From Nitrosopumilus sp. (lineage in GTDB: Archaea; Thermoproteota; Nitrososphaeria; Nitrososphaerales; Nitrosopumilaceae), in contig CBDBLO010000002.1 of assembly GCA_965207075.1 (NCBI GenBank), forward strand, positions 1,760,001 through 1,824,000: a stretch of DNA of 64,000 nucleotides, written 5' to 3'. Both the position numbers and the translations under genes were made by a program. Numbering within the stretch: position 1 is the first letter of the stretch; each line of letters starts with the position of its first letter. Shown here piece by piece: positions 1-51,694 of this stretch. The notes below the pieces were generated by a model. The model was not told the DNA's origin, did no database searches, and saw only the letters and a list, made by a program, of their open reading frames with translations.

Positions 1-1
1 A

Positions 2-2352: not shown

Positions 2353-2562
2353 CGCGATCCAAGGATGTAAGGATGTCTTGAAATACGAATAGGCTGTTAC
2401 GTAAGTCACGTCACAATCCGGTCGTGTGTTTGGTCACAAGAGGCTCGCACGATACCGCTGTGATCCTTCACTGTATGATCTTGTTATTGCTGTGCCTTTG
2501 GGAGACTGAAATGAGAGAAAAATAGTAAAAAACAACGACCCATAGAACAAATTGATCGACAT

Positions 2563-5772: not shown

Positions 5773-6619
5773 CTATCTGGGTATAATCCCTTTCCACGCC
5801 TTCTACAACGTACTGGGTCGCGCGCGCCTTTTCGGTGTCGCCGCTGGACTCTGAGACCTTTTGGAGCTTTTCGGCAGTCTCTGTGGACAGATCAATATTC
5901 ATCTTTGTCTTGAGTTTCTGTCTCTTTGCTGCGCGCGCCTCCATGTCGCCTATGCTGCCTCCGCGCGCGGCTTCTGCGGCAAGGTCTGCAGGTTCAATCT
6001 CAGGTCTTGCCATCGCCTTTGCCATCTCCAACACGCGGTCTTCAGGGACCGAACCGTTTTTTGTATACTGTAGCGCGTCAACTGCACGAAGGGCGGCATT
6101 CTCTGCTTTCTTTGGGTTGTGGTGAATCTCGCCCTCCTGGATTGCCGTCTTTAGTGTTTCGGGAAGTCTTGCGAGCCGGACGTACTTGTCTACCATCCGC
6201 TTGCTGATGCCAAACTCCTGCCGCACCATCTCATAGTCGCCGTATACGTTGTAAAGATCCGTTACCGCCTTTATCAGATCCGGGTTGGTCATGGGAAGCT
6301 GCGTGATGTTCTCTGCGAGGGAGAGCGCCTTCTTTTTCTCATCGGTCTCTGGTTCTGGTATTACCTTGCACTGGATCTTGTCAAATCCTTCCTCGGGATA
6401 CTTGTCGTTGAGGTAGTGGTGCGCGTTCAGTCTTCTCTGTCCAGTAAGGATCACATAGCAGGATTGTCCCGAATCATAATACGCGGCAATTGGCTGCAAC
6501 AATCCGTTTGCCCTGATGTTTTCTGCCAAGTCTTCTATTCCCTGATCGATGTCGTGAATGCGCACGTTGTGCTTTTGAACCTTGATGTTATCTAACGAGA
6601 TATCCTTGAATTCGGCCAT
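5765..6619 (-). CDS. ParB/Srx N-terminal domain protein with HTH and possible C-terminal RHH
   Basis: IEDLAENIRANGLLQPI, ILTGQRRLNA, SLAENITQLPM; start estimated at MAEFKDI. Confidence 0.85.
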   Translation of the reverse strand: MAEFKDISLDNIKVQKHNVRIHDIDQGIEDLAENIRANGLLQPIAAYYDSGQSCYVILTGQRRLNAHHYLNDKYPEEGFDKIQCKVIPEPETDEKKKALSLAENITQLPMTNPDLIKAVTDLYNVYGDYEMVRQEFGISKRMVDKYVRLARLPETLKTAIQEGEIHHNPKKAENAALRAVDALQYTKNGSVPEDRVLEMAKAMARPEIEPADLAAEAARGGSIGDMEARAAKRQKLKTKMNIDLSTETAEKLQKVSESSGDTEKARATQYVVEGVERDYTQIGD

Positions 6620-6931
6620 TGTAAACGAACGGGGGTTTACAAATAAAAGCATTTTCTTGAAGATTGCGTAACCGTTCGATTCCTCCCAAAGTTTAGGCAC
6701 GAATTTCATAATCTGGCTTCTCTCAGGCATAAGGGTTGAGTGGTTACCAGATTGCCATGTCTGGATTGCAACAATTCCCCCTCCGCGCCTCACTCCCTTG
6801 TTGACACGTGGGCTCCTACTGTACCATTGTCCCCCTAGATGCAAATGGGGCAGAAAGGAAGTAGTTGCTCACGTACGTGAGTCTCCAGTCTGACTCCCGT
6901 ATGAACTACCGCGTTCACCATGGATTAAGGT

Positions 6932-7708
6932 TTAGCCCAAGATTATCTCGCATGCTACGAGTCCATACGATAGAACCACCTTGTGCTTTTTTTGTATGGT
7001 GCCGATCAGGCTCTTTTTTTCTTCTTCAAGGGCATCCATCTCGTCTGCCACTTGAAAGCGGAATTCGCGCGCCTTGTCAGAGTCGACGGATCCCCTGTCT
7101 TTGCGGTTTATGGATTCGTCGAGCTCACGTACGCGAAGATCATACTTTTCTGTAAACAATCGTACATCGTCGCCGAATCTCTGGTTTGCATCGCGTAGGA
7201 ATGCAAGGGACGCACCATCATGTCGTGTTTGCAATTCCTTTATGGCTGCACTATACGTTCTTGTGACTTCATCCGGACTCATCCAATCCAGCGAATGCGA
7301 GGCGCCATCATGATCTGAGATGCCTGCATCGGATCTTGTAGCCAACTCCACATCCACATGATCCAATGCGAGCATGTCTGACCGGCCCGAGAAGCGGATA
7401 AAGAAATGGTAGCGTATTGTGGCATTACTGTTACCGTTGGCCAAATTTCTTACTTTCACCGGGCCCTTGCCTGTGCAGATCTCGATAATCTGTGACAGAA
7501 TTCTGTTGCCCGGTGCCACTAACTCATAATCATGCCTTGATGCCGCATCACGATCGAACACGATACACAGCTCCCATGCTCTAAATGTGTGTCGATAGGA
7601 TTCTGGGACGCGTATCACGTAGGCCTCGTCGTCCGTGTTTACAATGTCCGCGTTGACTCCATTAAAGAACCCTAGGACAAGATCTCGTATGTCTTCTTGC
7701 ATGTTCAT
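6932..7708 (-). CDS. Hypothetical protein, YqhG-like partner of the SNF2 helicase
   Basis: ATGA overlap with the helicase; 'CIVFDRD..YELVAPGNRILSQI' and a C-terminal coiled coil; the pairing recalls Bacillus yqhH-yqhG. Confidence 0.5.
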   Translation of the reverse strand: MNMQEDIRDLVLGFFNGVNADIVNTDDEAYVIRVPESYRHTFRAWELCIVFDRDAASRHDYELVAPGNRILSQIIEICTGKGPVKVRNLANGNSNATIRYHFFIRFSGRSDMLALDHVDVELATRSDAGISDHDGASHSLDWMSPDEVTRTYSAAIKELQTRHDGASLAFLRDANQRFGDDVRLFTEKYDLRVRELDESINRKDRGSVDSDKAREFRFQVADEMDALEEEKKSLIGTIQKKHKVVLSYGLVACEIILG

Positions 7709-9471
7709 GACGCTTTCTCCTTTAGTACGGACAGGTCAAAGTTTCTAAACACGCCGGCGTTAAAATCCTGTATTGCATCGGCCGCTCTTTCTTTTTGGGC
7801 GTTCCAGTCGTCTCCTAGCGCAGAGAATCTGTTTCTCTGTTCCTGTTCGTTTGCCACGTCCATGTATTCTGTGAACCACGTACGCGGAGAGCCCCCCGCC
7901 CACGAGTCCTCAAACATGAGATCCATGTCGCCAAGCGCCATCCTGAATAGGTTGATCTTCATGTATAGCAGTTCAAGTATGTACGCCTCAATCGTGCCCG
8001 AGAGCGCGAGGTTGAATATGTGGACGTTGTCTTTCTGGCCTATCCTGTGAACTCGCCCTATCCTCTGTTCCACACGCATCGGGTTCCACGGCAGGTCGTA
8101 GTTTACGATATTGTGACAGAACTGAAAGTTCTGGCCTTCCCCACCCGCGCTTGTAGAGACCATGACACATGCGTCGTTCTTGAAGCTGGTTACAGATTCC
8201 CGCTTCTCTTCCGGGCTCATCCTACCGTTGAACAGCGTCACGGAATGTCCATTTTTTTGCAAATGCTCGGCGATATAATCTTGCGTAGCGTAAAACTCTG
8301 TGAATATCAGAAACTTTGATCTGCTGTTACCGATTATTCCCTGCAGTTCGGACAGCTTGGAGTCTTCCCGGATTGCAGACGCAGTTGACATGAGCTTCCG
8401 GTATATCTCCTCGGAGATCAGTCCGTTGCCTTTCATCTTGTAGAGAGCTCTCTTTGATGCCGCCGTGCTGCTTGATGCCAGTCTCTGATAAATCATCAGA
8501 GCAAGCGTATCGCCGCCAGCCTTGTACTGCGTCCTGACAATGTCTGTTATTGCATTATACAGACTGGATTCGTAATGGCGGGGAATGAGAATCCTTGTGT
8601 GAGGGATCCTGTCGGTGAATTTTATGTATCTTCTTGCTTCGTTGCGGGTTGTGCGTATGACGAATTTAGACAGGATTCTCTGCAGCTCGTCTCGCATTAA
8701 AGGCCGAATCTTTCTTGCTGCCGTGTCTGCGACATATTTGCTGCGAAACTGCGCCCACGTCCCAAGACATCCTGGGCGCAACAGCTCGATCAGATTGTAC
8801 ATCTCCTCGAGGTTGTTCTGAATGGGAGTGGCGGTGAGCAACAGTAGATTGCGCTTTGGAAGGCCTCGTACCAGCCTGTGCTTGTTCGTCGCTGCGTTTT
8901 TCATACTGTGGGCTTCGTCGACTATTACCATATCCCAGTACGTGGAGTGTAGCGGCACCGACTGTCTTGGATATATTGCAGAAGAATGAGACATCAGCAA
9001 AAGGTTATGGGATTGTATGTCTTGGGATTTGGAATCGTCGCGGTGTATAACAAAGTCCAGGTCAAACTTGCTTGACATCTCGTCCCGCCACTGGGGCAGA
9101 AGTGACGGGGGCGCAAGAATGAGTATGTTCTTGGCAAGTCCGGTGACTAGGAATTCCTTGATCAGTATGCCGGCTTCGACCGTTTTTCCCAGTCCTACCT
9201 CGTCCGCAAGTATGCCGGATCCACCAAGCTCGTTTTTGACCTTCTGTGCTGCTAGGATCTGGTGATCAAAGACGCTCACGTTTTCGCTTGTTTTGATTGA
9301 CTCTGCAATGGACAGCTCCTGCTCTCGCAGGTGGAGATGCAGATCGTACGCCTTTAGCGTGAGTGTTAAGAATTCTGGGTTTTGTGTCATACTGGTGCGT
9401 AGCCTGTCCTTTATGCCAAACTTGTCTGGAAATATAGTTCTGACATCTTCAATGTGCGGCGTTTCATTCAT
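7705..9471 (-). CDS. SNF2-family helicase (YqhH-like)
   Basis: LADEVGLGKT, DEAH, LTATPIQN, GGEGQNFQ, YDLPWNPMRVEQRIGRVHRIGQ. Confidence 0.92.
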   Translation of the reverse strand: MNETPHIEDVRTIFPDKFGIKDRLRTSMTQNPEFLTLTLKAYDLHLHLREQELSIAESIKTSENVSVFDHQILAAQKVKNELGGSGILADEVGLGKTVEAGILIKEFLVTGLAKNILILAPPSLLPQWRDEMSSKFDLDFVIHRDDSKSQDIQSHNLLLMSHSSAIYPRQSVPLHSTYWDMVIVDEAHSMKNAATNKHRLVRGLPKRNLLLLTATPIQNNLEEMYNLIELLRPGCLGTWAQFRSKYVADTAARKIRPLMRDELQRILSKFVIRTTRNEARRYIKFTDRIPHTRILIPRHYESSLYNAITDIVRTQYKAGGDTLALMIYQRLASSSTAASKRALYKMKGNGLISEEIYRKLMSTASAIREDSKLSELQGIIGNSRSKFLIFTEFYATQDYIAEHLQKNGHSVTLFNGRMSPEEKRESVTSFKNDACVMVSTSAGGEGQNFQFCHNIVNYDLPWNPMRVEQRIGRVHRIGQKDNVHIFNLALSGTIEAYILELLYMKINLFRMALGDMDLMFEDSWAGGSPRTWFTEYMDVANEQEQRNRFSALGDDWNAQKERAADAIQDFNAGVFRNFDLSVLKEKAS

Positions 9472-9928
9472 TAATTATACATCACAAACGTGCTATCTTA
9501 TACATTTGGGTAACGACATAGTATGGACCCAAGCCGTCTCAAACTCACATCTAGAAGCAAACACGGCCCTGTTGTTTCGCGCCCAAGACAACAGACGCCT
9601 GAATTCGTACCAAAAATAATACACTCACAATCACTCCACGTGATGTGATGCTCGTTGGGTAACAGAAAGAAGTACATAAAATATCCGGAATGCAATAGTC
9701 TTGGAGAAATCATACTAAAAATATATCGAAACAGAAGGCAAGACAATTACGCAAATGTTTGAGAACAAAAGAAACGACATACATCTAGGCCGCGCCTACG
9801 TGTACCTCCTGCGGACGAAGACCACTGTCTTGTGAGAACGACAATTGATAGGCATTCGGTCACCAACTGTTAACACAGAATAATCAAAGGTTCAAAGAAT
9901 TTATTACAAACTAATCGAAAAGTGATAT

Positions 9929-10627
9929 ATGTTAAGTGACACTGAAGCAATATCTTTGTCAAAATCACTATACACCATATTAAAAGTTGAAAAGTGTTTT
10001 ACAAAAAATGATTTTATAGAACGTTATGGAAATCAACTAATACGGATTGAGAAGCAATTCAACAATTTAAATCGTAAACTTGCAATTGTACGTTGCCACA
10101 TAGAAGAATACCGACAGCTACATAATGAAAAGACTCCGAATGAGCCTCAAATGACTCAATCGGACGTTTTTATTGAATTGACTACATTGTATTGTAGTTT
10201 TGGTTTAGCACACTATGAACTCTTGAAACGGTTTTTCATTGCAACATTAGATTTAGAACATTTGAGCGCAATAGCAAAAACTAAGATAAGAAAACCTCCC
10301 ACATTTGGTGGGATTATTAATACATTCAAAGGTTTGCCAAATTATAATGATAAAATGGCCGAAATGTTAGATAAGGATTTTCGTAATGCTTTGGCGCATG
10401 ATAGCTGGTACTTGGGAAGCAACGAAATGAAATATCTCGTAAATGATAAATTAGTTCAAATTCCATTCCTGAAAATCCCACAAAAAATCAAAATCATAGG
10501 AAGAGCATATACAACAATTTCAGAGTGTTATACTATGGATTTTTTCCCTGAGATAGTGGACGCATATAATAAGGGATTGAAAAATGAAATTCAGAAAATT
10601 ACCCCATTATTTGGAATGAACGATTAA
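9929..10627 (+). CDS. AT-rich hypothetical protein with HEPN-like Rx4H motif
   Basis: FRNALAH near the C-terminus, preceded by PTFGGII; markedly low GC. Confidence 0.55.
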   Translation: MLSDTEAISLSKSLYTILKVEKCFTKNDFIERYGNQLIRIEKQFNNLNRKLAIVRCHIEEYRQLHNEKTPNEPQMTQSDVFIELTTLYCSFGLAHYELLKRFFIATLDLEHLSAIAKTKIRKPPTFGGIINTFKGLPNYNDKMAEMLDKDFRNALAHDSWYLGSNEMKYLVNDKLVQIPFLKIPQKIKIIGRAYTTISECYTMDFFPEIVDAYNKGLKNEIQKITPLFGMND

Positions 10628-14304: not shown

Positions 14305-15123
14305 TATCGGATGCACGCCTCCCCGACGCGTGCGTCGGCGTAAAAAAACTGCATCCCGTGACAACGACTATCCCGCATCGCCAGTATCATGACAATCGTC
14401 CCGTCCTCACGGTGTCCCCCCATGACGCGCTCGTACCCGAGCGCGTCCTCCGGCCCGATCCCGGCCGCCGCTGCCGTATCAACTGGCATTCCCTGCCGCC
14501 TCCCCGCGGTTGTTGCCGTCCCGCCGCCGGACCGCCGTCCTTGGCGAACCGTGGCCGCCGTTGTAAGAGTACATGGCCCCCGGCGGGGCGGGTGTCGCGT
14601 CGCGGCCGCGCATCTCCCTTCGCGCCGCGCACGCCAGCATGATGTGGTGTCCGCAATAGCTTGGTTCGTGCGGCCGCCGCATCGCCCCGGCAGCAGGGCC
14701 GGCGGCCCCGGCATCATCCCGATCGCGGCCCGCACCGCGTCTTTCCGATTTGCCGTCGTTGCCATTATCATCATCATCTCTGCCAAAACCCCTCTTCCGG
14801 TTCCCCCTTCGTGCGCACTCTGGCCTCCCGCGGAGCTCCGGGTCCACGAACTGTGCCGTGCATGTCATCGCGGGCTCCGTCCCGCTGTCCGGGCGGCAGG
14901 CGATCCCCCCACGAACCTCAGTCCCGGCCAGGACCGTCCCCCATTTCTCCATGCAACAGCATTACCGTCAATTTTGTATTTATCCTTTATGATAAATATG
15001 TTGTAAGAGGGAGTTGGCAGGCGCCGTCCAGGGCGGCGCGGCCGGCATGCGGCAGGAGTCCCGCTGTAAATGTATCATAAGTATAACATAAACAATAAAA
15101 ACAACATATGCTTGTGGTACAAC

Positions 15124-15510
15124 ATGGGAAAGGAAGACTGGAAGACGGTCAACGTGAAGAAGGCCATGATGGACGAGGTCGAGAGGATGCTGCGGACAGA
15201 CGCGGTAAGGAAGGACGGGATAACGAACATGTCCCAGTTCGTGGACCTGGCGCTCCGCGAAAAGATCGAGAGGCTCGAGCGCACGCGGTTTGAGCACATC
15301 AACATGTACGAGGACCACGTGAAGATACTGGACAACAAGCTTGGGCGAGCGGGCAGGATCCTGTCCGTGTATTTTCGAGACACGCGGGCGTGGTGCGAGT
15401 ACTGCGACGAGCATATGTGCGTCCACATACAGTACGCGTGGGAGATCCCGGACGTCAGGGAGGTCCTGGCCGCGCGCAAGATTGCACCGCCCCCCTCCAG
15501 GGCGGGCTGA
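15124..15510 (+). CDS. RHH-like regulator with C-terminal Zn-binding (CxxC-x4-CxH) domain
   Basis: WKTVNVKKAMMDEV...NMSQFVDLALREKI, then WCEYCDEHMCVH; AT-rich promoter upstream. Confidence 0.65.
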   Translation: MGKEDWKTVNVKKAMMDEVERMLRTDAVRKDGITNMSQFVDLALREKIERLERTRFEHINMYEDHVKILDNKLGRAGRILSVYFRDTRAWCEYCDEHMCVHIQYAWEIPDVREVLAARKIAPPPSRAG

Positions 15511-15711: not shown

Positions 15712-16620
15712 ATGGACATAGCATACCTGACGGCGCACCAGTACCGGAAGCACCCCGAGTTTCATGGCATCGGCGAGTTGGTCATGAGATATCTGAACCG
15801 GCCGGGCGACCGGATTCCCGACGCCCGCCGCGGCGTGGATCCGCGGAACCTCGATTTCCTCGACAAGCCGGTCTGGCACAACAAGACGGATCTCGACGTA
15901 TTTGTCGCAAAGGAACTGGGGCTGAACATCGAGGACTATTCGTATGATCAGAGCGGCGGCAAGCACGGGAACTCGTTTTACAACGCGACCGTGGGCGTGA
16001 TCCGGGATCTGCGCGTGAACGGCGTCATAGTTGACCTGCTGACGGACGTGCCGAACACGCAGAAGGGTGTCTGGCGGCTGAACACCGTGAGCGCCGTCAG
16101 GTTTGAAGAGGAGATGGCGAGCCGGGAGATGAAGGCTGGGAATTTTCACTGCCGCGGAAAGGAGGGTACCACGTTTGTCAGGAGCAAGCAGGGGATGTTC
16201 AAAAGAATACTGCTGGAGCAATACGGGTACTGCCTGTTCTGCCGGTTCGACCTGCAGAGGTGGATGACCGGCGCCCACATCGTGCCGTTTAAGGTAATGA
16301 GAATCAAGGATCCCGATAACTCGATGAACCCCGCGAACGGCCTGCTGCTTTGCAAATTATGCGATGTGGCGTTCGAGGACGGCTACATACTGGTGGAGGG
16401 GGATTACGGCGTTACTGTTACGGACCTGCTGCGGGAGAACAGAAACCCGGCGGTCCGGGGGTGGGTGGAGCGCATAGTTCCCGAGATGCGCATAGACGAT
16501 GGTGTCAAGTACCGGCCCGGTGCAGAATATCTGAAGAGGAAGAAGAGGATCGTACTGGGGGGCGGACACCGATACAATGTCTTCGGTTATCGTGGGCGCG
16601 GAGGAGGACGCCTCGGGTGA
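15712..16620 (+). CDS. HNH endonuclease with N-terminal wHTH (Mrr_N-like) domain
   Basis: RSKQGMFKR..CLFC..GAHIVPF..NGLLLCKLCDVAFEDG (HNH_2 type); N-terminal ...KGVWRL. Confidence 0.8.
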   Translation: MDIAYLTAHQYRKHPEFHGIGELVMRYLNRPGDRIPDARRGVDPRNLDFLDKPVWHNKTDLDVFVAKELGLNIEDYSYDQSGGKHGNSFYNATVGVIRDLRVNGVIVDLLTDVPNTQKGVWRLNTVSAVRFEEEMASREMKAGNFHCRGKEGTTFVRSKQGMFKRILLEQYGYCLFCRFDLQRWMTGAHIVPFKVMRIKDPDNSMNPANGLLLCKLCDVAFEDGYILVEGDYGVTVTDLLRENRNPAVRGWVERIVPEMRIDDGVKYRPGAEYLKRKKRIVLGGGHRYNVFGYRGRGGGRLG

Positions 16621-16828
16621 GGATAATGGCGCAAACGCGCCGCCGGCGGCGGTGGACGCGCGGCCCGCGACCGTTTCCGAACTCGCGGCCGGCCAGGCGT
16701 CCTTGCCGGAGTGGGTAAAGATCAGCGCTGGGTGGTGGGCCGAGGGCGCCATTGACGACGACACGTTTGTGCGGTCCATACAGTTCCTCGTACAGAGCGG
16801 GGTCATAGTTGTCACTGAGTCCGAATGA
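16577..16828 (+). pseudogene. Fragment of a surface protein carrying the thaumarchaeal 'PEWVK.SAGWWAEG' module
   Basis: Same module as in 52060-53028 and 59239-60756, but with no signal peptide or main body; overlaps the HNH 3' end. Confidence 0.55.
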
Positions 16829-16945
16829 CGGTGACGGGCGCGCTGTTCCAGGCCTGTTGATGTACTGTTTGAGCGGCTTGATCTCCCATTGACGTACAAT
16901 CAGGGAATAATACTCGGCCGTGGAAAAACCAACCCTGGTGGATTC

Positions 16946-16981
16946 AAGTCGACAAAGTCGACAAAGTCGACAAAGTCGACA
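16946..16981 (+). repeat. 4 x 9-bp tandem repeat AAGTCGACA
   Basis: Read directly. Confidence 0.95.
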
Positions 16982-16997
16982 ACATTGTGGACTCTTG

Positions 16998-17041
<44 letters not shown>

Positions 17042-17044
17042 AAG

Positions 17045-17364
17045 TCAGCAAAGTCGTCATACCGACGACTTTGCTGAGCCTGTGCCTAGAGCCCCCCTAG
17101 GGTCGGCGGAGCCGACTGAGCCGATAAGATGGACAAGTGCCCGCCCTGGGCGGAGCCCAGGGCGGGCCTCTGGACATGCCCAACCCGGGTAGCTGGCGCG
17201 CGAGAACATTGAATGACAACCGCGCGCCTGAAAGAGTGGAGGCTGTGAGATACCTGAGAGATTGACAGCTGAATGCGGGCGCCTGCTGGCTGAGGGAGAC
17301 AATGGAGCGACCTCGGAGGGAACCGACGAGGGCGCTGAGCCCCCTCGGAGGGAACCGACGAGGG
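17045..17364. other. Cluster of perfect hairpins and a 22-bp direct repeat (candidate oriT/origin)
   Basis: 14-bp stem 17045-17077; 6-bp stem 17102-17116 and 13-bp stem 17139-17167, both with GGA loops; direct repeat 17311-17332 / 17343-17364. Confidence 0.55.
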
Positions 17365-17571
17365 GGCGAGAAATGCCCCAATCTCCACAACGCGCAACAT
17401 TGCGCCGACGGGCCGGTTCCGCGGCGCGCCCACGATGAATGCCAGCTTGGAGGGCGGGAGCGCGGCGCTTCGAGGTGACCCCCCATGTGGAATGTGTCGT
17501 GAGAGGAGCTGGCCGTCGTTCAGGGGTTGTGTTATGTGCGAGGGGGACAGCAGATAAATGCCATCAGCCCA

Positions 17572-17837
17572 CGAGCGCGCTTCACATGCTTAGCGCGCGT
17601 GCCGCGAGCGCGCTTCACATGCTTAGCGCGCGTGCCGCGAGCGCGCTTCACATGCTTAGCGCGCGTGCCGCGAGCGCGCTTCACATGCTTAGCGCGCGTG
17701 CCGCGAGCGCGCTTCACATGCTTAGCGCGCGTGCCGCGAGCGCGCTTCACATGCTTAGCGCGCCACAACGGGCCGCGAGCGCGCTTCACATGCTTAGCGC
17801 GCGTGCCGCGAGCGCGCTTCACATGCTTAGCGCGCGT
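17572..17837. repeat. 8-copy 33-bp tandem array with an internally palindromic unit
   Basis: Core CGAGCGCGCTTCACATGCTTAGCGCGC starts at 17572, 17605, 17638, 17671, 17704, 17737, 17776 and 17809. Confidence 0.95.
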
Positions 17838-17870
17838 TTTCCCCTTAAGTGGATCCGGGGCATTGAGTCC

Positions 17871-18182
17871 ATGGAAAAAGACGTAATCGAGCGCAGGGTG
17901 CACATGAGGAGAAGCTCCTTCATACTGACGATCCCGCAGGACATAGTAAGAAAGGCGGGGATCAGCAACGGCCAGAGTGTCAGGTTCGAGATCAGGGACG
18001 GGAAGATTGTAATCAGCCCCACGGACGTCGTGGGTAGCGGCGGCGCTGCGGACCCAGAGGGCCTCGACCCGTACAAGAAGGCCATAACCGACATGATGGC
18101 AAAGGGCGCCAAGTCCGAAGGATCCGCGGGCCCGAGGAGAGCGTCAGGGAAAAGCAAGCTGGAACGCCTCAGGCTCAAGTGA
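17871..18182 (+). CDS. AbrB/MazE/SpoVT-family DNA-binding protein
   Basis: SSFILTIPQDIVRKAGISNGQSVRFEIRDGKIVISP is the classic AbrB pattern. Confidence 0.85.
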   Translation: MEKDVIERRVHMRRSSFILTIPQDIVRKAGISNGQSVRFEIRDGKIVISPTDVVGSGGAADPEGLDPYKKAITDMMAKGAKSEGSAGPRRASGKSKLERLRLK

Positions 18183-20091
18183 CCGTAACCAGAACCCCGC
18201 GCTTCTCCTCGTCTGAGAGGTGGTCGTAGATCTGCTGCACCTTCGGGCTCTTGGACCACACGTGGCACTGCCCGAACCCCATGTCCCGCCACTTTACCAT
18301 GTTGTACCGGACGTGCTCGGGGTGGCTCTGCACCTCGACCACCGACTCGATCTCCACGCTTATGGGCGTGCCATTGCCATAGTCGTACGCCACCAGGTCG
18401 GTCCTGTCGCGGCCCTTTGTCACCTTTTGGGACGCCACCGCCACGAACATCCCCAGCTCAAGGTAGCTGTAAAACACGCGCCGCGTCAGGTCGTCGATCT
18501 CGGCGGCGGAGCCGACCTCGTCGAACCGGGGCTCAAAGTATGCGGACCTGGCCTCCGGCGTCAGCTCGTACCTTGAGAGGCGGTTTCCGGGATCGGTCTT
18601 TCTGACGAGCCTGTCTGCCTGCATCTTTTTGAGGACGTCGAGCACCTCGGATCTGTTTGACACCGGCAGTTGCGACACCATCTCCACCTGCTGCAGCGGC
18701 TTGTCTAGAAGCATGACCATTATCCTCCACTCCATGTGCGTCGGGAACCGCACCGTTATGCTCTCAAGCCACTTGTTGCGGGCCGCGATCGTCTGCCTGA
18801 CCATGGTATCCTCCACCGTGCCGCGGCCGTACTTTGCAAGCTGGGCGGCCAGGAACTCGTCATACGCGGCGGCAGACACCAGCAGCTCGGGCGGCGCACC
18901 CAGCCAGAACTGGACGGGCAGCGGCTGCTCCTTTCCGGGCGGAGCCTTTTCCCGTATGGACCAGTGAAAGTACTCCTGGCTTGCAAGCAGCCTGGTCAGC
19001 TCCCCCTTGAACTGGGGATCCCAGATCTGGGCCATCCTGGTGGCGTCCTTGCCGTTGACCTTGCCCACGAGCTGCGTCCCCGAGTTCCCGGTGATCAGTC
19101 CGAGCTGCGTGTCGCTTATCTGCTCTGTGGTCTGGTGGGACAGCACCAGCCCCAGCCCCAGCGACCTGGCCTGCTCAAGCATCAGCTGGAGCACCTGCAG
19201 ATCCTTTACGATCTGGAACTCGTCGAGGGCCAGCACCACCTGCGTCCTCTCCTCGCCGGACACGCGGTTTGCGCGCTCCTGGATGGCAAACCACAGCTTT
19301 AGTATGAACGCCTGCATCGCTAGGGGCTGCACGTGGTGGGGCATGTTCAGGGGCGATATGCGCACCACGGTGTACGTGCCTGGCCTGATCAGCTCCCTAA
19401 AGTCGACTGTGCCCCTCCGGACCGAGAACATCCTCTTGAGCACGGGGTCGGTCGCGAACTGCTCTATCCGGTTGAGCAGCGGGACGAACGCGTCGCCCTT
19501 GAGCGCCGCTATGCTCAGGAGCGCCTGCTCCATCTCCCGGTTCGGGGTCCCGAACGTGCTTGCTATCTGCGGCAGGGCGTCGTGCCCGCTCTCCTGCATC
19601 TTCAGTATCATGTCGTGTATGTCAAGGAAGGTGGGCGAGTCGTGCTCCATGTACACGTAGAACAGCAGGGCGCGGAATATGCGCTCCATCTGGACAAACG
19701 TGGCGGACTGCTGGTACCACTCCTCTATGGTCTTCATGAAGTATCCGACGTACCTGGACACCAGCTCCTCGCGCTCGTCATCCCGGTATGCGGGCAGCTC
19801 AAGCGGGTTGATCGAGAACCTGGTCTTCTGGGGGTCCAGGAAATGCACGAGGCCGCGCCCGACCGTGCCGGGGTCGCACTGCCTGACGAACTTGTAGGAG
19901 TCGTCGCCCTTCGGGTCGACGTAGATGAACGCGTTCTGGAACGTGCCGTTGCGGTTCCACGCCTCCAGGTGCTTTGCAAGCAGGCGGATCAGCGAGGTCT
20001 TGCCGGATCCCGAGGCGCCCACCACGTACAGGTGGTTTGCAAAGTCGGTGGGGGATATGACCGCCGCGCCTACATCCTTGGATCTTGCCAT
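18175..20091 (-). CDS. VirD4/TraD/HerA-like ATPase with C-terminal wHTH and PD-(D/E)xK-like domain
   Basis: HLYVVGASGSGKT, YVDPKGD, SINPLE, LALDEFQ, EQARSLGL..SHQ; C-terminal RTDLVAY..SVEIES. Confidence 0.85.
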   Translation of the reverse strand: MARSKDVGAAVISPTDFANHLYVVGASGSGKTSLIRLLAKHLEAWNRNGTFQNAFIYVDPKGDDSYKFVRQCDPGTVGRGLVHFLDPQKTRFSINPLELPAYRDDEREELVSRYVGYFMKTIEEWYQQSATFVQMERIFRALLFYVYMEHDSPTFLDIHDMILKMQESGHDALPQIASTFGTPNREMEQALLSIAALKGDAFVPLLNRIEQFATDPVLKRMFSVRRGTVDFRELIRPGTYTVVRISPLNMPHHVQPLAMQAFILKLWFAIQERANRVSGEERTQVVLALDEFQIVKDLQVLQLMLEQARSLGLGLVLSHQTTEQISDTQLGLITGNSGTQLVGKVNGKDATRMAQIWDPQFKGELTRLLASQEYFHWSIREKAPPGKEQPLPVQFWLGAPPELLVSAAAYDEFLAAQLAKYGRGTVEDTMVRQTIAARNKWLESITVRFPTHMEWRIMVMLLDKPLQQVEMVSQLPVSNRSEVLDVLKKMQADRLVRKTDPGNRLSRYELTPEARSAYFEPRFDEVGSAAEIDDLTRRVFYSYLELGMFVAVASQKVTKGRDRTDLVAYDYGNGTPISVEIESVVEVQSHPEHVRYNMVKWRDMGFGQCHVWSKSPKVQQIYDHLSDEEKRGVLVTVT

Positions 20092-20145
20092 CTCGCCCCA
20101 CTGGCGCCCCCTGCCCCTCTTCCGGCCTGCGGCCAAGCGCCACCA

Positions 20146-21399
20146 TCATCCCGTTGCGATTCCCGCCCCCGCGTCCCCGGGCGCAGGGCCGGGCTGCGGG
20201 CCGGGATCGTCCAGCGAGTCGAAAAAGCCGATGCCGGCGCCCTCCTTTTCAGACGGCTTTGAGGGGAGGCGCACGCCGCGCGTGGTCTCCACGTTGGGCG
20301 TGGACGGGTCGGGCAAATGCACGAACAGCGGCATTTCCACCGGGTTCAGGATCAGGAAAGGCATCGGCCTCCTGGTCCTGTACCCGCGGAGCCCCCACCA
20401 CCCCCTGTCAAAATACTCTGATACGGCGCGGCCGAAAAACTGGTCCGGGTCTGGCAGGTGCCGCGACTCGAACATGCACACCCGGTGGTCGCGCGAACCG
20501 CGCAACCCGGGCACCATGATCTGGGACTTTTTTGCGTCGGAGCAGAACCTGTCATATCTGTAGCGGAACTTTGCCAAATGCTCGTACGTGGAATCGATGC
20601 CGTCCACCGACAGCGCCGAGATCTTGTCAAACGGCAGGTCGATGTCTTTGCCGCCGTTGCTGCTGTTGCCCTGCACCAGCCCCCTTATGCTCATTACCAG
20701 GTGCGCGCCCTGCATCTTTGCCATGACGTGCTTCTTGAGGCCCTTGTAGTTGCTTGTAAGGTCGTACCCGAGTTCCGGGTGCTTGCGCGGCTTTTTCCCC
20801 GTGATCTCGTCCCCCCACGACGTGTAGTCGCCGCGGTTTATCTCCATGAACCGCGCGTCCAGCCGCGACATGTGCGTGCGGAGAAAAGGCGTGCAGTCAA
20901 GCCGCGCAAACACGAACTGGATCCACGCGCGGCTGGCCGACTGTACGGCGCTCGCCATCCTGGTGATGAGGCTGTGCCCCCCACTACCGCCGCCACCCGG
21001 CTCGTCAAAGACCGTCGCGTAGTGGCCGTGCCGCGTCCCCACGTCAAACACGCGGCATGCGGACCCGCGGTCAAACCACGAGGGGACGGTCTCGCTCATG
21101 TCACCGAACGCCGCGTTGGGATACATGACCTGGAACGCCCGCTCGAAGTCGCCCGCGTCCCTCTCGTCTGATATGATGACAAACCGGAGCCTCGACTCTG
21201 CCGCGTCCCACCACATCTCAAAGCTCCGTACCTGCTCGCCTGCCAGGCCCCCGGCGACGTTTGCCGCCCTCTGCGGGTCCGACTCCAGTGGTACAGTTAC
21301 TGAACGGGCGGACGGCCTCTCTGGACCGCGTATGATCTTTCTGACGTCTGCCAGCTGCCCTCTGGGCATCTTTTTGTTTGAGATTCGCCACCTCGGCAT
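20146..21399 (-). CDS. Hypothetical protein upstream of the coupling ATPase
   Basis: 417-aa ORF; SFEMWWD..LRFVI..YPNA and FLILNPVEMPLFVHLP resemble the N-terminal region of long VirD4-like proteins. Confidence 0.55.
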   Translation of the reverse strand: MPRWRISNKKMPRGQLADVRKIIRGPERPSARSVTVPLESDPQRAANVAGGLAGEQVRSFEMWWDAAESRLRFVIISDERDAGDFERAFQVMYPNAAFGDMSETVPSWFDRGSACRVFDVGTRHGHYATVFDEPGGGGSGGHSLITRMASAVQSASRAWIQFVFARLDCTPFLRTHMSRLDARFMEINRGDYTSWGDEITGKKPRKHPELGYDLTSNYKGLKKHVMAKMQGAHLVMSIRGLVQGNSSNGGKDIDLPFDKISALSVDGIDSTYEHLAKFRYRYDRFCSDAKKSQIMVPGLRGSRDHRVCMFESRHLPDPDQFFGRAVSEYFDRGWWGLRGYRTRRPMPFLILNPVEMPLFVHLPDPSTPNVETTRGVRLPSKPSEKEGAGIGFFDSLDDPGPQPGPAPGDAGAGIATG

Positions 21400-21561
21400 G
21401 CAGTCAGGACGGCGGTTTCCTTTTAAGCCCGCAAACGCGCAGTCTCATCCGCATTCCCTATTTGCATCCAGATCAGGATGGTGGAAGCAGACGGGATGGA
21501 GGGGGATGCAGAATTGATTCACTATGGATAGTCTTAAAAACAATTTGAAATACCGTAATGC

Positions 21562-21720
21562 ATGTCAGAGACAAAGCAGGCATCAGATGACAGCCTGTGG
21601 CCAAACGAAGAGTATGCGATAGAACAGTATGAATCCGGAAAGGACACGACGAAGTTGTTTGAAACCCCCGAGGCACTGATAGAGGATCTTCACAGGGCCG
21701 AACGACTTTGTGGCGCATAG
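21562..21720 (+). CDS. Putative small acidic antitoxin
   Basis: 52 aa MSETKQ..EEYAIEQYESGK..FETPEALIEDLH; overlaps the RelE gene; conserved in the second copy. Confidence 0.7.
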   Translation: MSETKQASDDSLWPNEEYAIEQYESGKDTTKLFETPEALIEDLHRAERLCGA

Positions 21721-21977
21721 AGCGGACAAGCCGGTTTGTCCGTTGCTACGTGAGACTTCCATCCCAGATGAGAAGGAGGGTAGACGAGGCCGTATTGCAA
21801 CTTGCAGAATCTGAAAATCCCGCAGACGCAGGCGTCCCAAAAAGAGGCAGATTCAAGGGATACTTTGCGTATGAGATTGGGCGCTCGTACCGTCTGATCT
21901 ACAGGGTCGTCGACCGGCAGAAGATAGTCCTGCTGGTGGTAGTGGGAGACCACAAGTCTGTCTACGGCAAGGACTGA
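21708..21977 (+). CDS. RelE/ParE-family toxin
   Basis: WRIERTSRFVRCY.RLP..YEIGRSYRLIYRV..LVVGDHKSVY. Confidence 0.85.
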   Translation: MWRIERTSRFVRCYVRLPSQMRRRVDEAVLQLAESENPADAGVPKRGRFKGYFAYEIGRSYRLIYRVVDRQKIVLLVVVGDHKSVYGKD

Positions 21978-22133
21978 CTCTTCTATGATATTCTTTGGAC
22001 TGTCCTCTTTCCAAGACCCGGGGGCGCGACGCGCCGCCGGGCATTCCACTGTCCGCGAGGGACTGCGCCGGCATCCATGCGACTGGCTGCCCGGTGACAC
22101 CTGCATAAGCGGCGCACGCCCTGCGGCGGCAGG

Positions 22134-22979
22134 CTATTCCGCCAGCTTGTAGAGCCCGTTTGCGTTGCTCATCACGGGATCGTCTGGAACCACCACCTTG
22201 AACTCCTTTAGCTTGGCGGCCAGCCTCTCCCGCATGCCGGGGATCAGCAGCCCCCCTCCCGAGAGCGCTACGGTGTACCGGTTGCCGTACTGCCCGGACA
22301 CGTCGTGTATCTCGCGGGCCAGGTTCTCGGCCATTATCCTCGCGTACCTGTGGCACACGTCGTGGTTCCTGTGGAGCAGGTCCGTGTCGAGGTGGGCATA
22401 CCTGCCTATCTTTCGGGTTACAAAGTCCGACGCCCACCTGGAGCTCTCCCCGTCTATGATCTCCATGTCGTCTATCACCACGATCTCGGTTGTGCCCTGC
22501 CCGATGGACACCACGATGGCGCTCTCAAGGTCGAGGTCCACCAGCGTCCCCGAGGCCTGGGCGACCACGGTGCACGCCTCCGTATTGAGCGCCTTTTGTA
22601 TCACCCTTGTCATGGACTCGCGGTAGCCAAACGCGTGGTACGGCAGGCCGACCACGATGCGGAGCTTTGCGTCCGTGTCGGCCGGGGCCTTTGCCAGCCC
22701 GCGGACCTGGCGCATCGTCTCGGCCAGCAGCATGTCCACCTGCTTGTAGTACCTGGAGTCCGGCTTGCCCCTGACAATCGGGCTTATGGCAGTGGCGCCC
22801 ATGGTGTCAAGCAGCGAGCCTGCCTTGTCGCCCACCGCCTCCGTAGCCTTTTCCGTCCACAGCCCGTGGATGCGCCTCACGTATATCGACGGAAAGCGCA
22901 CCGCCCCGTAGTCGGAGACGCACTTTACAAAGCCGGTTCCGATGTCGAGGCCGATCTTCATCATTACGTCTGACATCAA
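22134..22979 (-). CDS. Actin-like ParM/StbA-family protein
   Basis: GLDIGTGFVK, RFPS, VVGLP, VSIGQGTTE, LSGGG, DPVMSNANG. Confidence 0.85.
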   Translation of the reverse strand: MMSDVMMKIGLDIGTGFVKCVSDYGAVRFPSIYVRRIHGLWTEKATEAVGDKAGSLLDTMGATAISPIVRGKPDSRYYKQVDMLLAETMRQVRGLAKAPADTDAKLRIVVGLPYHAFGYRESMTRVIQKALNTEACTVVAQASGTLVDLDLESAIVVSIGQGTTEIVVIDDMEIIDGESSRWASDFVTRKIGRYAHLDTDLLHRNHDVCHRYARIMAENLAREIHDVSGQYGNRYTVALSGGGLLIPGMRERLAAKLKEFKVVVPDDPVMSNANGLYKLAE

Positions 22980-23045
22980 TTGCGTTTAAGCGGGGTTTCG
23001 GCAGCCGGCCGACGGGCTGCCCGCGGCACCCGGACGCCGCGACAA

Positions 23046-23477
23046 TTACGTCCTGATCAAGTCCTGTCCCCGGCCGGCAGGCTCCGCGCCCGCGCGGCGC
23101 ACAAACGAACGGCTCTCGGCAAGCCCGGACAGGTGCACAACGCCCGCCAGAACGGCCGCCACGCAGAGGAACTCCGTATCCCACGTATGCGTGACCAGAA
23201 ACGGCGAGAAGACGACGAGCGCCGCCTCGGCCGCAAGCGCTGCCGGCACGGCCATCCGGAGTCGGAGGCGTCCGGCCAGAATGCGGAGCACCAAACTCTG
23301 CTCATATTTGAATAAAAATTGGCGGTGCCTTACGGTGTGCGCCATGTCCAGGCAGCAGGCCGCAAGCCAGAACGAGACGGGGCCCCAGGCCCATCCGGCC
23401 GGAACCGTCCACCCGGAGGCGTACGCAGTCCCGAGCAGCGCGCCCGCAAGGCACGCAAGGACGGTCGACGCCCTCAA
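23046..23477 (-). CDS. Integral membrane protein
   Basis: 3-4 hydrophobic segments; start overlaps the pilin stop. Confidence 0.6.
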   Translation of the reverse strand: MRASTVLACLAGALLGTAYASGWTVPAGWAWGPVSFWLAACCLDMAHTVRHRQFLFKYEQSLVLRILAGRLRLRMAVPAALAAEAALVVFSPFLVTHTWDTEFLCVAAVLAGVVHLSGLAESRSFVRRAGAEPAGRGQDLIRT

Positions 23478-23758
23478 TACTTGACGCCCACTATGACGAA
23501 CCCGACGAACCCGACAATGGCGATGATGATCGACACGTAGCCGAGGCCCTCAAGGACGGTCGCCTTTATGTCGCCCTCCTCCAGGCATTCGGCGTCGGCG
23601 CCGTCCTGGCCCTGTTCGCACAGCGTCTCCAGGTTGACGTTGGTGAACTCCTCTATTATAAGGGGCGAGAGCGATCCCAGCACGAGGAGCACCACCACCC
23701 CGATCACACCGTTCTTCATCTTCTGCTTGTCTTCCGGGTCCTTTTCTGAAAGTACCAT
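23474..23758 (-). CDS. VirB2/TrbC-like pilin, apparently circularly permuted
   Basis: Two TM helices; begins with VLSEKDPEDKQKMK and ends with GVKY, the two halves of the usual inter-helix loop. Confidence 0.55.
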   Translation of the reverse strand: MVLSEKDPEDKQKMKNGVIGVVVLLVLGSLSPLIIEEFTNVNLETLCEQGQDGADAECLEEGDIKATVLEGLGYVSIIIAIVGFVGFVIVGVKY

Positions 23759-23934
23759 GCATGGCATGTGCCCGATATCATAAAAGGCGGTTTTTCTCCG
23801 TACGCGGTTCGGCGGGTGGAGTGGAGAGAGGAATGGAGGCGCTGCCCCCTCTGTCGGGCGCCGTCCTCCGTCTGCCGCACCAGTCCCGGCGGCCGGACTG
23901 CGGGCGGGCCATGAGCGGACGGCGGCAAATGCGC

Positions 23935-23964
23935 GATGGTAACAAAGATTTCTTTGTTACCATC
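23935..23964. promoter_or_regulatory. Perfect 14-bp inverted repeat GATGGTAACAAAGA-TT-TCTTTGTTACCATC
   Basis: Read directly; lies upstream of the pilin operon at the island edge. Confidence 0.6.
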
Positions 23965-24196
23965 TAACAGATACGCCTGTCACCGGGGGGCTTGCTACGC
24001 GCCCACGAGTCCGTGACGGGGCGTTCCGGATGCCTCCGGCACACTTTTTTACATGCCTGGAAAACGTCAATGCGTCGTGGACGGCGGGCCTGGCCGCGTT
24101 GCAGGAACCTGTGCCGACCGGCGGCCGTGCGATCTATAATATGATGGGAATGTACGGTTTTCCCTACATGTACACTTTAGATCCCACTCTCTGCAT

Positions 24197-24331
24197 CTAT
24201 TGTGAAGCGGGCGTAGCCTGCACGCGGACCCTCGTAGTCGAATGGTTCATGATCTCTCTGTGGATCGCGGCAAGGCTCTCGTCCCTGAATATTAGGTTGC
24301 ACCTAAAGCACTTGGAGACAACCTCGGTCAT
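24197..24331 (-). CDS. Small C2H2-type zinc-finger protein
   Basis: KCFRCNLIFRDESLAAIHREIMNH. Confidence 0.65.
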   Translation of the reverse strand: MTEVVSKCFRCNLIFRDESLAAIHREIMNHSTTRVRVQATPASQ

Positions 24332-24594
24332 GTGCAAAAAGCAGGCGTGATTGCTTATAAAAGTATTGGATATTTTGTTCATTTTTTATGACATATGACG
24401 CCATATATTGAAAAGATGAAATTATTTCCGAATTTTGTACAATGTAATGCAATATCTTGCGGGCGGTTGGCGGCAAGCGGGGCGGGGCCGGACGGTCACG
24501 CGCAAATCCCACAAACCCACGCCGGCGCCGTACGCCGGCAACCCACGACAAAAAGGGATTTACGGCAAGGGACTCCTCGAATAATGACTGTAAG

Positions 24595-25221
24595 ATGGAG
24601 GCAGATCCCCTGTTTGATGCGGTGGGGGGACTCTCGTATGCCGGGATATTCCTGCTGCTAGTCGGCGTCAACGCGTCGCCCATACTGATGCCGCCAAGCT
24701 GGGTGATACTGGCCTCGTTCCACCTGCTTGACCCGACCCTGGACGTCATACTGCTTGCGGCCGTGGGGGCCACGGGGGCCACCGCAGGCAGGTTTCTCCT
24801 AAAGCGCGTCAGCATACGCTTCAGGCGGTTTGTGGGGCCCGAGCAGCGTGAAAACCTTGACACGGTAGGCAGGTACCTCAACGGCAAGAGGTACGGGTAC
24901 GTGCTTGCGTCGTTTCTGTTTGGCGCGACCCCGCTGCCAAGCAACATGCTGTTCATCGCATACGGGCTCATGCATGCAAAGAGCGCAGGGATATACGCCG
25001 GCTTCTGGGCCGGCAGGATGATATCGTATGTGATAATGATACACCTGGGGGACATAGTGCTGCGCCCCTTTGTCGGGATATTTGAGGACAGGCTGGTGGG
25101 GATACTGGTAGTCGACGGCATCGGACTCTGCGTGGTAGCTGTGTTCGCGTTCATAGACTGGACGCTCTTGATCACGAAAAAGAGGCTGAGGTTTACGAGG
25201 CCCAGAATCTGGAGGATCTGA
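24595..25221 (+). CDS. DedA/VTT-like membrane protein
   Basis: Hydrophobic; GATAGR, FGATPLPSN, FWAGRMI. Confidence 0.7.
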   Translation: MEADPLFDAVGGLSYAGIFLLLVGVNASPILMPPSWVILASFHLLDPTLDVILLAAVGATGATAGRFLLKRVSIRFRRFVGPEQRENLDTVGRYLNGKRYGYVLASFLFGATPLPSNMLFIAYGLMHAKSAGIYAGFWAGRMISYVIMIHLGDIVLRPFVGIFEDRLVGILVVDGIGLCVVAVFAFIDWTLLITKKRLRFTRPRIWRI

Positions 25222-32655: not shown

Positions 32656-32727
32656 GGACAGGCGGCGTCCGGACAGGCGGCGTCCGGACAGGCGGCGTCC
32701 GGACAGGCGGCGTCCGGACAGGCGGCG
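32656..32727 (+). repeat. 15-bp tandem repeat GGACAGGCGGCGTCC (4 full copies plus a partial one)
   Basis: Read directly; intergenic. Confidence 0.95.
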
Positions 32728-51396: not shown

Positions 51397-51578
51397 CGCC
51401 CGGCGCATTTGGCGGAGCGGTATGCGAAGTGGCGGCAGCCGAGCATAGCTGCGTTCTTACTTGGCGGAAAGACAACTGCGCGACGGCCGCAGACGCGCGC
51501 AGCAGCGGCGCCGGGTTTGCAGGACAGTTTAATTTTTTCTTGCCGGAAAAGTAAATGCGTCAAATAATTAATGTTTTT

Positions 51579-51694
51579 AATTAGCGCATCCTAATTAGCG
51601 CATCCTAATTAGCGCATCCTAATTAGCGCATCCTAATTAGCGCATCCTAATTAGCGCATCCTAATTAGCGCATCCTAATTAGACTAGTCTAATT
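51579..51694. repeat. 7 x 14-bp tandem repeat AATTAGCGCATCCT followed by the 18-bp palindrome AATTAGACTAGTCTAATT
   Basis: Read directly. Confidence 0.95.

Follow-up and report, generated by a model that had tools for sequence, protein, structure and literature searches.

A conserved repeat array, an AbrB-fold protein and an actin-like protein in a Nitrosopumilus mobile element: a possible actin-based partition module

Results

A phased repeat array adjoins the abrB promoter

The DNA analysed here, hereafter the window, is a 64,000-nt stretch of the genome of Nitrosopumilus sp. (contig C2, positions 1760001-1824000). It is archaeal chromosome, with heme, purine and tRNA-synthetase genes from 25.5 kb onward, and a mobile element occupies approximately 10.7-23.8 kb of it. 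This element encodes, in order, an 1118-amino-acid (aa) protein, a ribbon-helix-helix (RHH) protein and an HNH protein, followed by ~1 kb of non-coding, repeat-rich DNA that includes a tandem array, the AbrB-family gene abrB, a convergent gene for a 653-aa ATPase, the gene p417, an inserted ParE toxin pair, a gene for an actin-like protein and two small membrane-protein genes (Table 1). The array, abrB and the actin-like gene, which lies 3.95 kb from the abrB stop codon, constitute a real, conserved and previously undescribed three-part module, for which interpretation as a partition system with an AbrB adaptor is plausible from sequence comparison.

Table 1. Features of the element and its module, in window coordinates
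Feature	Position	Strand	Description
RHH146	15070..15510	+	146-aa RHH-type protein, second small DNA-binding protein of the element; CB_ParB_C E 0.0067, below cut-off
Leader of the array region	16830..17571	.	Non-coding, repeat-rich
Array	17572..17837	.	Two direct 9-bp subrepeats and a 7-bp inverted repeat per unit; proposed AbrB binding array, centromere-like site and operator
TATA-like box CTTAAGT	17844..17850	+	~24 nt before the abrB ATG; last repeat unit adjoins the TFB recognition element (BRE)/TATA region
abrB	17871-18182	+	103 aa, AbrB/MazE fold; DNA-binding N-domain (~1-55), variable linker, conserved C-terminal peptide
SKLERLRLK codons	18153..18179	+	Conserved terminal peptide; proposed partner-binding motif
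ATPase gene	18175..20136	-	653-aa P-loop ATPase, VirB4/VirD4/HerA-like; C-terminal winged helix, nuclease-like end; convergent with abrB, stops overlapping
p417	20146..21399	-	No family match; model resembles the N-terminal domain of VirB4 (TrwK)
Inserted toxin-antitoxin pair	21562..21977	+	52-aa open reading frame (ORF) and 89-aa ParE-like toxin (Pfam ParE-like_toxin 2.1e-7)
Actin-like gene	22134..22979	-	Actin-fold ATPase, 275-281 aa; proposed motor
p143 and p97	23046..23767	-	Two small membrane-protein genes upstream of the actin-like gene, same strand

Tandem Repeats Finder (TRF) reports the array with a period of 33, 7.9 copies, 94% matches and a score of 471. It comprises eight units over 266 bp with a common 24-nt core, GCGCGCTTCACATGCTTAGCGCGC, identical in all, and the unit starts are 33 bp apart save for one 39-bp step between units 6 and 7. 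The pattern GCGCGCT-N10-AGCGCGC occurs eight times in the window against 0.00 expected, and no match at all was found in any of 100 dinucleotide shuffles. These data bear out the original prediction for this DNA, made from its letters alone, which had described eight phased 33-bp units, each with this inverted repeat around a central CATG, ending ~33 bp before abrB: 33 bp separate the end of the last unit (17837) from the ATG (17871). In every homologous locus compared, a CCTTAAAT/CCTTTTAT box precedes the ATG by 22-27 nt. For the presumed promoter in the window, the short distance from box to ATG suggests that the abrB transcript is leaderless.

The array is also found beyond this genome. Two loci of another genome, L013 and L014, share 86.5% and 85.7% identity with the window across 17173-23800 (6.6 kb), and despite this divergence they carry repeat units identical to those of the window (8.0 and 7.0 copies, respectively). 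Both keep an irregular spacer before the last two units, similar but not identical in sequence. An unconserved variable-number tandem repeat, the outcome on which the earlier reading would have fallen, is thereby ruled out, and these comparisons indicate that the array is conserved under selection.

Array sequence follows the DNA-binding domain of AbrB

Besides the copy in the window (copy A), this genome contains four further copies of the element (B-E), plus relics. Copy B (C2:710-724 kb) is 91% identical to copy A in the ATPase and 88% in the actin-like protein but only ~50% in AbrB. A genome-wide TRF scan revealed 33-bp-period arrays of differing sequence directly upstream of AbrB paralogues at 717933-718087 (4.7 copies) and 2063506-2063746 (6.8 copies); at the array of a third paralogue (2136055-2136208), an insertion separates the array from its gene. 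For copies C and D, the repeated site is of the TGCATATCATGCA type, with irregularly spaced and 22-bp repeats.

The comparison of copies A and B separates the two candidate DNA-binding proteins. Their arrays are unrelated in sequence, though both have a 33-bp period. Between the two AbrB proteins, 25 of 55 residues are identical in the N-domain and 18 of 39 in the linker, as opposed to 10 of 11 in the C-terminal tail. The ATPases, by contrast, share 42-50 of 50 residues in every 50-residue window, including 43-44 of 50 in the winged helix-turn-helix (wHTH) region. Because arrays and N-domains diverge while the ATPase does not, array sequence tracks the AbrB DNA-binding domain rather than the winged-helix ATPase. 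Together, this covariation, the conservation of the array and its position at the abrB promoter make it very likely that AbrB binds its own array, and the resulting complex likely autoregulates abrB.

The comparison of paralogues also modifies the picture of the binding site. Read in gene orientation, what the paralogous 33-bp units have in common is two direct 9-bp subrepeats, GCTTnCnCn / TTTnCnnGC; copy B, for example, has GCTTTCCAC GCTTTCCAC, and the window GCTTCACAT GCTTAGCGC. The CATG palindrome emphasized by the original prediction is therefore present in the window array but is not a family-wide feature.

Other repeats and remnants of this kind occur elsewhere on the contig. At C2:446714-449416, an eight-unit copy of the window array is split 4+4 by a 1245-bp insertion sequence, present three times in the genome. 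Behind this split array come an abrB pseudogene, another 33-bp array, different in sequence (6.7 copies), and an integrase gene, and the whole looks like an element graveyard at one site. Identical low-GC 33-bp repeats of 2.9 copies, unrelated in sequence to the AbrB arrays, are found at C2:29012-29106 and 2175819-2175913.

AbrB ends in a conserved peptide behind a variable linker

The AbrB protein passes the Pfam threshold for PF04014 (SpoVT/AbrB/MazE; E 8e-8, 32.6 bits against a cut-off of 24.7) and lies under that of NCBIfam TIGR01439 (17.9 against 28.3). It has the extra C-terminal tail noted earlier, ending in GKSKLERLRLK. In an alignment of 22 homologues, the AbrB domain is followed by a hypervariable charged linker and then a conserved end. 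To quantify this end, we used the 61 clusters retrieved at E<=1e-10 by an AbrB profile search of 1.84 billion representatives, taking 52 divergent clusters in which the profile match reached the last positions (98-100 of 100). Across these, the tail motif reads S-[RK]-L-E-[KR]-L-[RK]-[ILM]-K, with L at -7 in 39/52, E at -6 in 36/52, L at -4 in 40/52 and K at -1 in 39/52; a shorter class, L-[DE]-G-L-[RK]-M, is also found among them. These terminal 7-9 residues are the only conserved part of the AbrB C-terminus. To judge from the alignments, a short conserved motif behind a free-running linker has the appearance of a partner-binding peptide.

Among the 15,773 ORFs of the window's genome, the tail motif is confined to six AbrB paralogues. 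We also considered host mimicry, in which the tail copies the C-terminus of a host protein, and rejected it, since no other ORF of the genome contains the motif. A metagenome scan with an AbrB sub-alignment returned one 2.8-kb contig, which carries a tailed AbrB and a convergent ATPase fragment.

The actin-like protein has an actin fold but lies outside the ParM family

The actin-like protein matches Pfam MreB_Mbl (1.4e-10) and PHROG 691, 'partition protein' (2.6e-17), its sole partition-labelled match. Its structure is modelled with high confidence (predicted local distance difference test score, pLDDT, 92), and the top Foldseek hits are MreB, MamK and actin (TM ~0.7). The phosphate-1, phosphate-2 and adenosine motifs (GLDIGTG, GQGTTE and GGG) are invariant in 27 actin homologues. 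No ParM/StbA Pfam match was found at E<=0.01, and in a profile search of the PDB, ParM of pSK41 (7.5e-6) scored no better than Arp2 or MreB. The earlier description as a 'ParM-like actin' therefore stands for the fold, given the model and the Foldseek hits, and not for membership of the ParM family, given the curated thresholds (see below).

Around the actin-like gene lie p417, the two membrane-protein genes and, on the opposite strand, the ParE-type toxin pair. No small same-strand ORF follows the actin-like gene in the window, confirming the lack of an adjacent ParR. All actin homologues with a source name are from Thaumarchaeota, mostly Nitrosopumilaceae, and a scan of viral contigs with the actin alignment gave one partial match.

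Tailed AbrB co-occurs with a single clade of actin-like proteins

We next asked how the three parts are distributed, scanning one genome per species with the actin alignment, which yielded 59 loci. A tandem array lies at most 160 bp upstream of 20 of the 26 AbrB-family genes near an actin-like gene, two of the 20 having three 9-bp subrepeats only. The periods of these arrays (22, 32-33, 43-44 and 53-55 bp) all lie close to multiples of 11.

A quick maximum-likelihood tree built from 65 distinct actin-like proteins places the 28 encoded near a tailed AbrB, without exception, in one clade together with five others (SH-aLRT branch support 100, branch length 0.89). The flanks of these five are too short or the element is truncated. 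All 21 actin-like proteins with a translationally coupled ORF of ~95 aa fall outside this clade. The coupled ORF begins MLTKSERRF and is conserved at its N-terminus and over a short stretch at its C-terminus, the linker between them being variable. In the clade of the window, no such adaptor-like ORF is found at the actin stop codon, where there are a few unrelated overlapping ORFs only; abrB instead lies 0.1-4 kb from the actin-like gene, usually on the opposite strand. The two candidate adaptors are thus mutually exclusive at these loci, which fits an AbrB that has replaced a ParR-like partner.

The ~95-aa ORF itself, at ~10.8 kb in each of the loci L037-L064 and L071-L076, overlaps the actin stop codon; it shows a ParR-like architecture and matches nothing in Pfam or NCBIfam. 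Genes upstream in these sister-clade loci include one for a zinc-ribbon, TFIIB-like protein.

A sample of 151 genomes of the family gave a similar association. Defining clade-I actin genes by a score of at least 400 bits, we found 12 in four genomes. An AbrB-family match lies 3-6 kb from 11 of them, and in the remaining case the ATPase gene is truncated. Conversely, a clade-I actin gene is found no more than 6 kb from eight of the 13 full-length tailed AbrB genes.

Elements of different composition separate the actin-like gene from the ATPase. In four small elements (L023, L031, L033 and L034), a tyrosine integrase gene, a Mini-A gene (topoisomerase VI-A-like), an actin-like gene and a tailed AbrB lie within 2.5 kb, and p417 and the ATPase are lacking. 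The Mini-A assignment rests on PHROG 6247 for L034 (1e-93) and on phmmer matches to the L034 gene for the other three. In copy E, p417-ATPase is present while the actin-like gene and the tailed AbrB are both absent, and a homologue of RHH146 occupies the AbrB position. L077 likewise has p417-ATPase and no tailed AbrB. As the small elements keep actin and tailed AbrB and copy E keeps p417-ATPase alone, the tail follows the actin-like gene rather than the VirB4-like ATPase.

The actin-like gene lies in an operon with a putative split VirB4-like protein

The 653-aa ATPase matches Pfam TrwB_AAD_bind (2.8e-6) and AAA_22, and the NCBIfam VirD4-like model below its cut-off (5.4e-7). For p417, a structural model (pLDDT 61) aligned by VIA-align to 7o42_A with Z 10.7 (234 aligned residues, root-mean-square deviation 3.9, covering TrwK/VirB4 residues 15-401); the next hit had Z 6.5. 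In copies C, D and E, p417 and the ATPase are fused into a single ORF of 1044-1345 aa (C2:1147405-1151442, C2:1919690-1922827 and C2:1941413-1944547). Given this fusion in three paralogous copies, p417 and the 653-aa ATPase of the window appear to be a split VirB4-like protein, even though p417/ATPase reaches just 18.8 bits against 643 for VirB4 (TIGR00929).

Further upstream, p97 is weakly similar to pilins of type IV secretion systems (T4SS; T4SS_pilin E 0.007, below cut-off), and both p143 and p97 are kept in copies B and E. From the fusions and the p417 model, we infer an operon of a pilin-like protein, a membrane protein, actin and a split VirB4, with abrB converging on it.

The remainder of the element and its surroundings

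The 1118-aa protein has no match in Pfam, PHROGs or NCBIfam and no usable ESM Atlas hit. The ParE pair is represented by remnants only in copy B, and tblastn found no match to it beside the actin-like gene in copies C and D. No integrase was recognized within 10.7-23.8 kb of the window, no flanking direct repeats that could serve as attachment sites were detected around the element, and neither a relaxase nor a Rep, primase, MCM or Rep-like family was recognized among the element proteins by family scans. An Rfam search over 16500-24600 gave nothing meaningful (best, a miRNA model at E 0.8).

The leader contains a 9-bp repeat in four copies (16946-16982), TGCC in 11 copies (16998-17041) and two copies of a 31-nt sequence (17305-17367). 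Just upstream of the array, at ~17512-17547, is a conserved ~35-nt element of the TTCGTTTT...GAGTAAATGCGA type, which a motif scan found upstream of arrays in 16 of 23 loci and which is discernible by eye in the window and two paralogues. It occurs in VirB4-type and Mini-A-type elements alike and has no Rfam match. By tblastn, the C-terminal ~40 residues of an 83-aa ORF upstream of the array (16577-16828) recur, with 40-76% identity, at over 20 sites of the genome and may be a repeated domain or mobile motif.

A low-GC (0.40-0.50) defence island of the Dnd/SNF2 kind adjoins the element (window 1-10627). Its genes encode DndE (PF08870, 3.3e-22), a class-V aminotransferase/cysteine desulfurase, an SMC-like fragment, an SNF2 helicase, a ParB_N-domain protein and a metallo-beta-lactamase-fold protein. 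Elsewhere in the window, other perfect or near-perfect tandem repeats have units of 14 bp (7.5 copies, 51578-51682), 15 bp (4.8 copies, 32656-32727) and 6 bp (9.8 copies, 45256-45314).

Discussion

A possible centromere-adaptor complex for an archaeal actin

Taken as a whole, the sequence evidence leads us to a reading that may well be correct, though we would put it just short of an even chance: that the array and AbrB form an autoregulated centromere-adaptor complex for the actin-like motor, used in the episomal phase of an integrative, T4SS-bearing element of Nitrosopumilaceae. Under this partition model, AbrB dimers or tetramers would bind the paired 9-bp subsites of each unit, as the covariation suggests. 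Unit lengths near multiples of 11 bp would place the sites on one face of the helix and so allow a cooperative scaffold like that of ParR on parC, and the overlap of the last unit with the BRE/TATA region of the abrB promoter would bring about autorepression. Flexible linkers would then display many C-terminal amphipathic peptides, which, going by co-occurrence, could capture the actin-like ATPase or a filament end when the element is episomal. Divergence of array and N-domain among co-resident elements, with a constant tail, would avoid centromere-based incompatibility while keeping the motor interface.

The original prediction, in which the array is the centromere and an AbrB-fold protein takes the place of ParR, is thus supported in part. 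Array conservation, covariation, the conserved tail and the clade-level link speak for it; a motor outside the ParM family, a T4SS-like operon, relics without actin and the minimal operators of small elements do not. Several of the points that weigh against it concern the arrangement of the parts. The two genes abrB and actin lie on opposite strands, ~4 kb apart, and are not co-transcribed, and the array adjoins the abrB promoter only, with no repeat copy near the actin operon. The position of the actin-like gene, between VirB2/VirB3-like and VirB4-like genes, may indicate a role in DNA transfer rather than partition. The protein itself falls under every curated actin-family cut-off in NCBIfam, with 39 bits against 293 for MreB and 21.7 against 417 for ParM. 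An episomal form was not seen: terminal overlap, the sign of a circular contig, was present in 0 of 21 whole-contig loci. Contigs assembled from four sequencing runs break at the array edges and at paralogous parts and gave no usable excision or circle joint.

The co-occurrence of the three parts, proposed earlier as a check, likewise gave a divided result. It holds as a link between one actin clade and tailed AbrB, and as arrays at most of the AbrB-family genes near actin. It fails for five of the 13 full-length tailed AbrB genes, which have no clade-I actin gene nearby and are array-AbrB relics with a 3′ ATPase stump, and for the four small elements, which have a minimal operator only (one palindrome, or two to three subrepeats). 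Long arrays are thus a trait of VirB4-type elements. Moreover, the tree gives a single origin of the association between actin and tailed AbrB, so that it should be weighed as a single event in evolution.

Alternative explanations

The same observations can be read without an actin motor. AbrB could be a master repressor for immunity or copy control, with the array as a long cooperative operator and the actin-like gene functionally unrelated; the tail would then mediate dimer-dimer contacts along the phased repeats or serve as a degron or anti-repressor site. The array adjoining the TATA box of a monocistronic abrB is what such a repressor would have, as are the simple operators of small elements, array-AbrB relics that outlast the rest of the element, like repressors in prophage remnants, and a specificity that diverges among co-resident elements, as immunity determinants would. 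Yet no repeat copy precedes any element gene other than abrB, hence abrB alone would be controlled, and eight to twelve phased units far exceed the needs of autoregulation. This explanation also leaves aside the strict clade-level link to actin and the complementary coupled ORF of the sister clade. We regard it as rather unlikely. A role in DNA transfer strikes us as less probable still. Here the array would be an origin-of-transfer (oriT)-like or recruitment site that the AbrB tail delivers to the split VirB4/VirD4-like ATPase, much as TraM at oriT of the F plasmid contacts TraD. Such a function agrees with the convergence and overlapping ends of abrB and the ATPase gene in most elements, the retention of the ATPase 3′ end beside abrB in relics, the presence of long arrays in VirB4-type and not in Mini-A-type elements, and the resemblance of p417 to the VirB4 N-domain. 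It is at odds with the homologous conserved tail of four elements that have neither p417 nor the ATPase, with copy E and L077, which have p417-ATPase and no tailed AbrB, and with the failure to recognize a relaxase in the element.

Two further explanations have little to recommend them. The array could consist of replication iterons, with the 1-kb repeat-rich non-coding region as the origin and AbrB as a copy-number or handcuffing factor; the several repeat types in this intergenic region and the conserved ~35-nt element upstream of arrays in most elements would be in keeping with an origin. No initiator of matching specificity is at hand, however: the wHTH of the ATPase, the only adjacent winged-helix protein, is conserved between copies A and B while their arrays differ completely. 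Nor were Rep, primase or MCM recognized in the element, and AbrB is not among the known initiator folds. Iterons appear very improbable. Least probable of all, and to our mind scarcely credible, is an orphan antitoxin of the AbrB/MazE type whose disordered C-terminus neutralizes a toxin encoded elsewhere. There is no toxin gene adjacent to abrB, as there would be for a type II antitoxin (MazE/VapB type): abrB has no same-strand ORF downstream in the window or in related loci, and its stop codon overlaps the convergent gene. Conservation is limited to the 7-9 terminal residues, and the nearby ParE toxin has its own 52-aa partner and no counterpart beside the actin-like gene in copies C and D.

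Returning to the partition model, its fullest form is one that we advance more tentatively, as a possibility suggested by gene content and phylogeny. The module may be the first archaeal actin-driven (type II-like) segregation machine and include the first centromere-binder with the AbrB swapped-hairpin fold; many AbrB dimers would be loaded onto the phased array, their C-terminal peptides capturing filaments of an orphan, minimal 275-aa actin. It may have been acquired once, have displaced a ParR-like coupled adaptor, and move between VirB4-type and Mini-A-type elements of Nitrosopumilaceae, those associated with sponges included, with diversification of array and DNA-binding domain as a way to escape incompatibility. 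If so, three small expressible parts (a 266-bp DNA, a 103-aa protein and a 275-aa actin) would be at hand for testing archaeal actin-based DNA transport. AbrB would add a third fold to the centromere-binding proteins, and the coexistence of several related elements in one 2.2-Mb genome would be explained.

Comparison with known systems

In the portions of the literature available to our search, we found neither a centromere-binding protein with an AbrB fold nor a thaumarchaeal partition system based on actin; the archaeal segregation systems described there all use Walker-type ParA, and no cargo adaptor or centromere of archaeal actins came to light in them. The AspA-ParB-ParA system of pNOB8, SegAB and HpaAB resemble the present module in having a site-specific centromere-binder upstream of its own cassette (PMC13722703, in the part of the text available). 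They differ in their Walker-type ParA ATPases and wHTH or RHH binders, HpaB of Haloferax being RHH according to the same text, and none there has an actin-fold motor or an AbrB-fold binder. Salactin is a haloarchaeal actin homologue with a proposed role in DNA partitioning; the term 'adaptor' has no occurrence in the main text of that report as available (PMC10746226). Salactin is chromosomal, and on the salactin model, which has a cut-off of 400, the window protein reaches 16.4 bits. As far as its accessible text goes, a 2019 survey of thaumarchaeal integrated elements describes integrative and conjugative elements (ICEs) with VirB4/VirD4, TFIIB and ParB-like genes and makes no mention of ParM, MreB or AbrB. 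The Mini-A paper, within the text available, reports no association with actin; ParM does not occur in it, and 'actin' matches unrelated words such as Actinobacteria.

AbrB, SpoVT and MazE factors are relatives by the N-domain, and autoregulation at the own promoter is likely a shared trait. The protein described here is set apart from them by a long phased array, a conserved 9-residue C-terminal motif, the lack of a toxin partner and an actin-linked mobile-element context.

A precedent for the setting is SrpMRC of the SXT/R391 ICEs, an actin-type partition module on an integrative conjugative element that is needed only while the element is excised. SrpMRC is bacterial and has a canonical operon with a ParR-like adaptor, whereas the actin-like gene here is embedded in a T4SS-like operon.

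In the type II ParMRC systems of R1 and pSK41, the adaptor gene is preceded by phased direct repeats overlapping the promoter, and a short C-terminal peptide of the adaptor binds the motor. The module resembles them in architecture, combining an actin-fold NTPase with intact nucleotide-binding motifs and a small, presumably dimeric DNA-binding protein as candidate adaptor. Phased repeats are present at the abrB promoter and absent from the actin operon, and the small elements have a minimal operator in their place. The differences are considerable: the candidate adaptor has the AbrB swapped-hairpin fold (Pfam SpoVT/AbrB/MazE) instead of RHH; its gene is unlinked to that of the motor, instead of lying downstream of it and being co-transcribed; the repeat units are 22-55 bp, compared with 11 or 20 bp; the proposed motor is not of the ParM/StbA family; and the host is an archaeon. 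Closer to parMR in gene order is the sister actin clade of Nitrosotalea, Nitrosotenuis and other Thaumarchaeota, which belongs to the same actin family (34-40% identity) and has a small gene, not AbrB-like, overlapping the actin stop codon in place of a tailed AbrB. The module of the window would work like ParMRC without belonging to that family.

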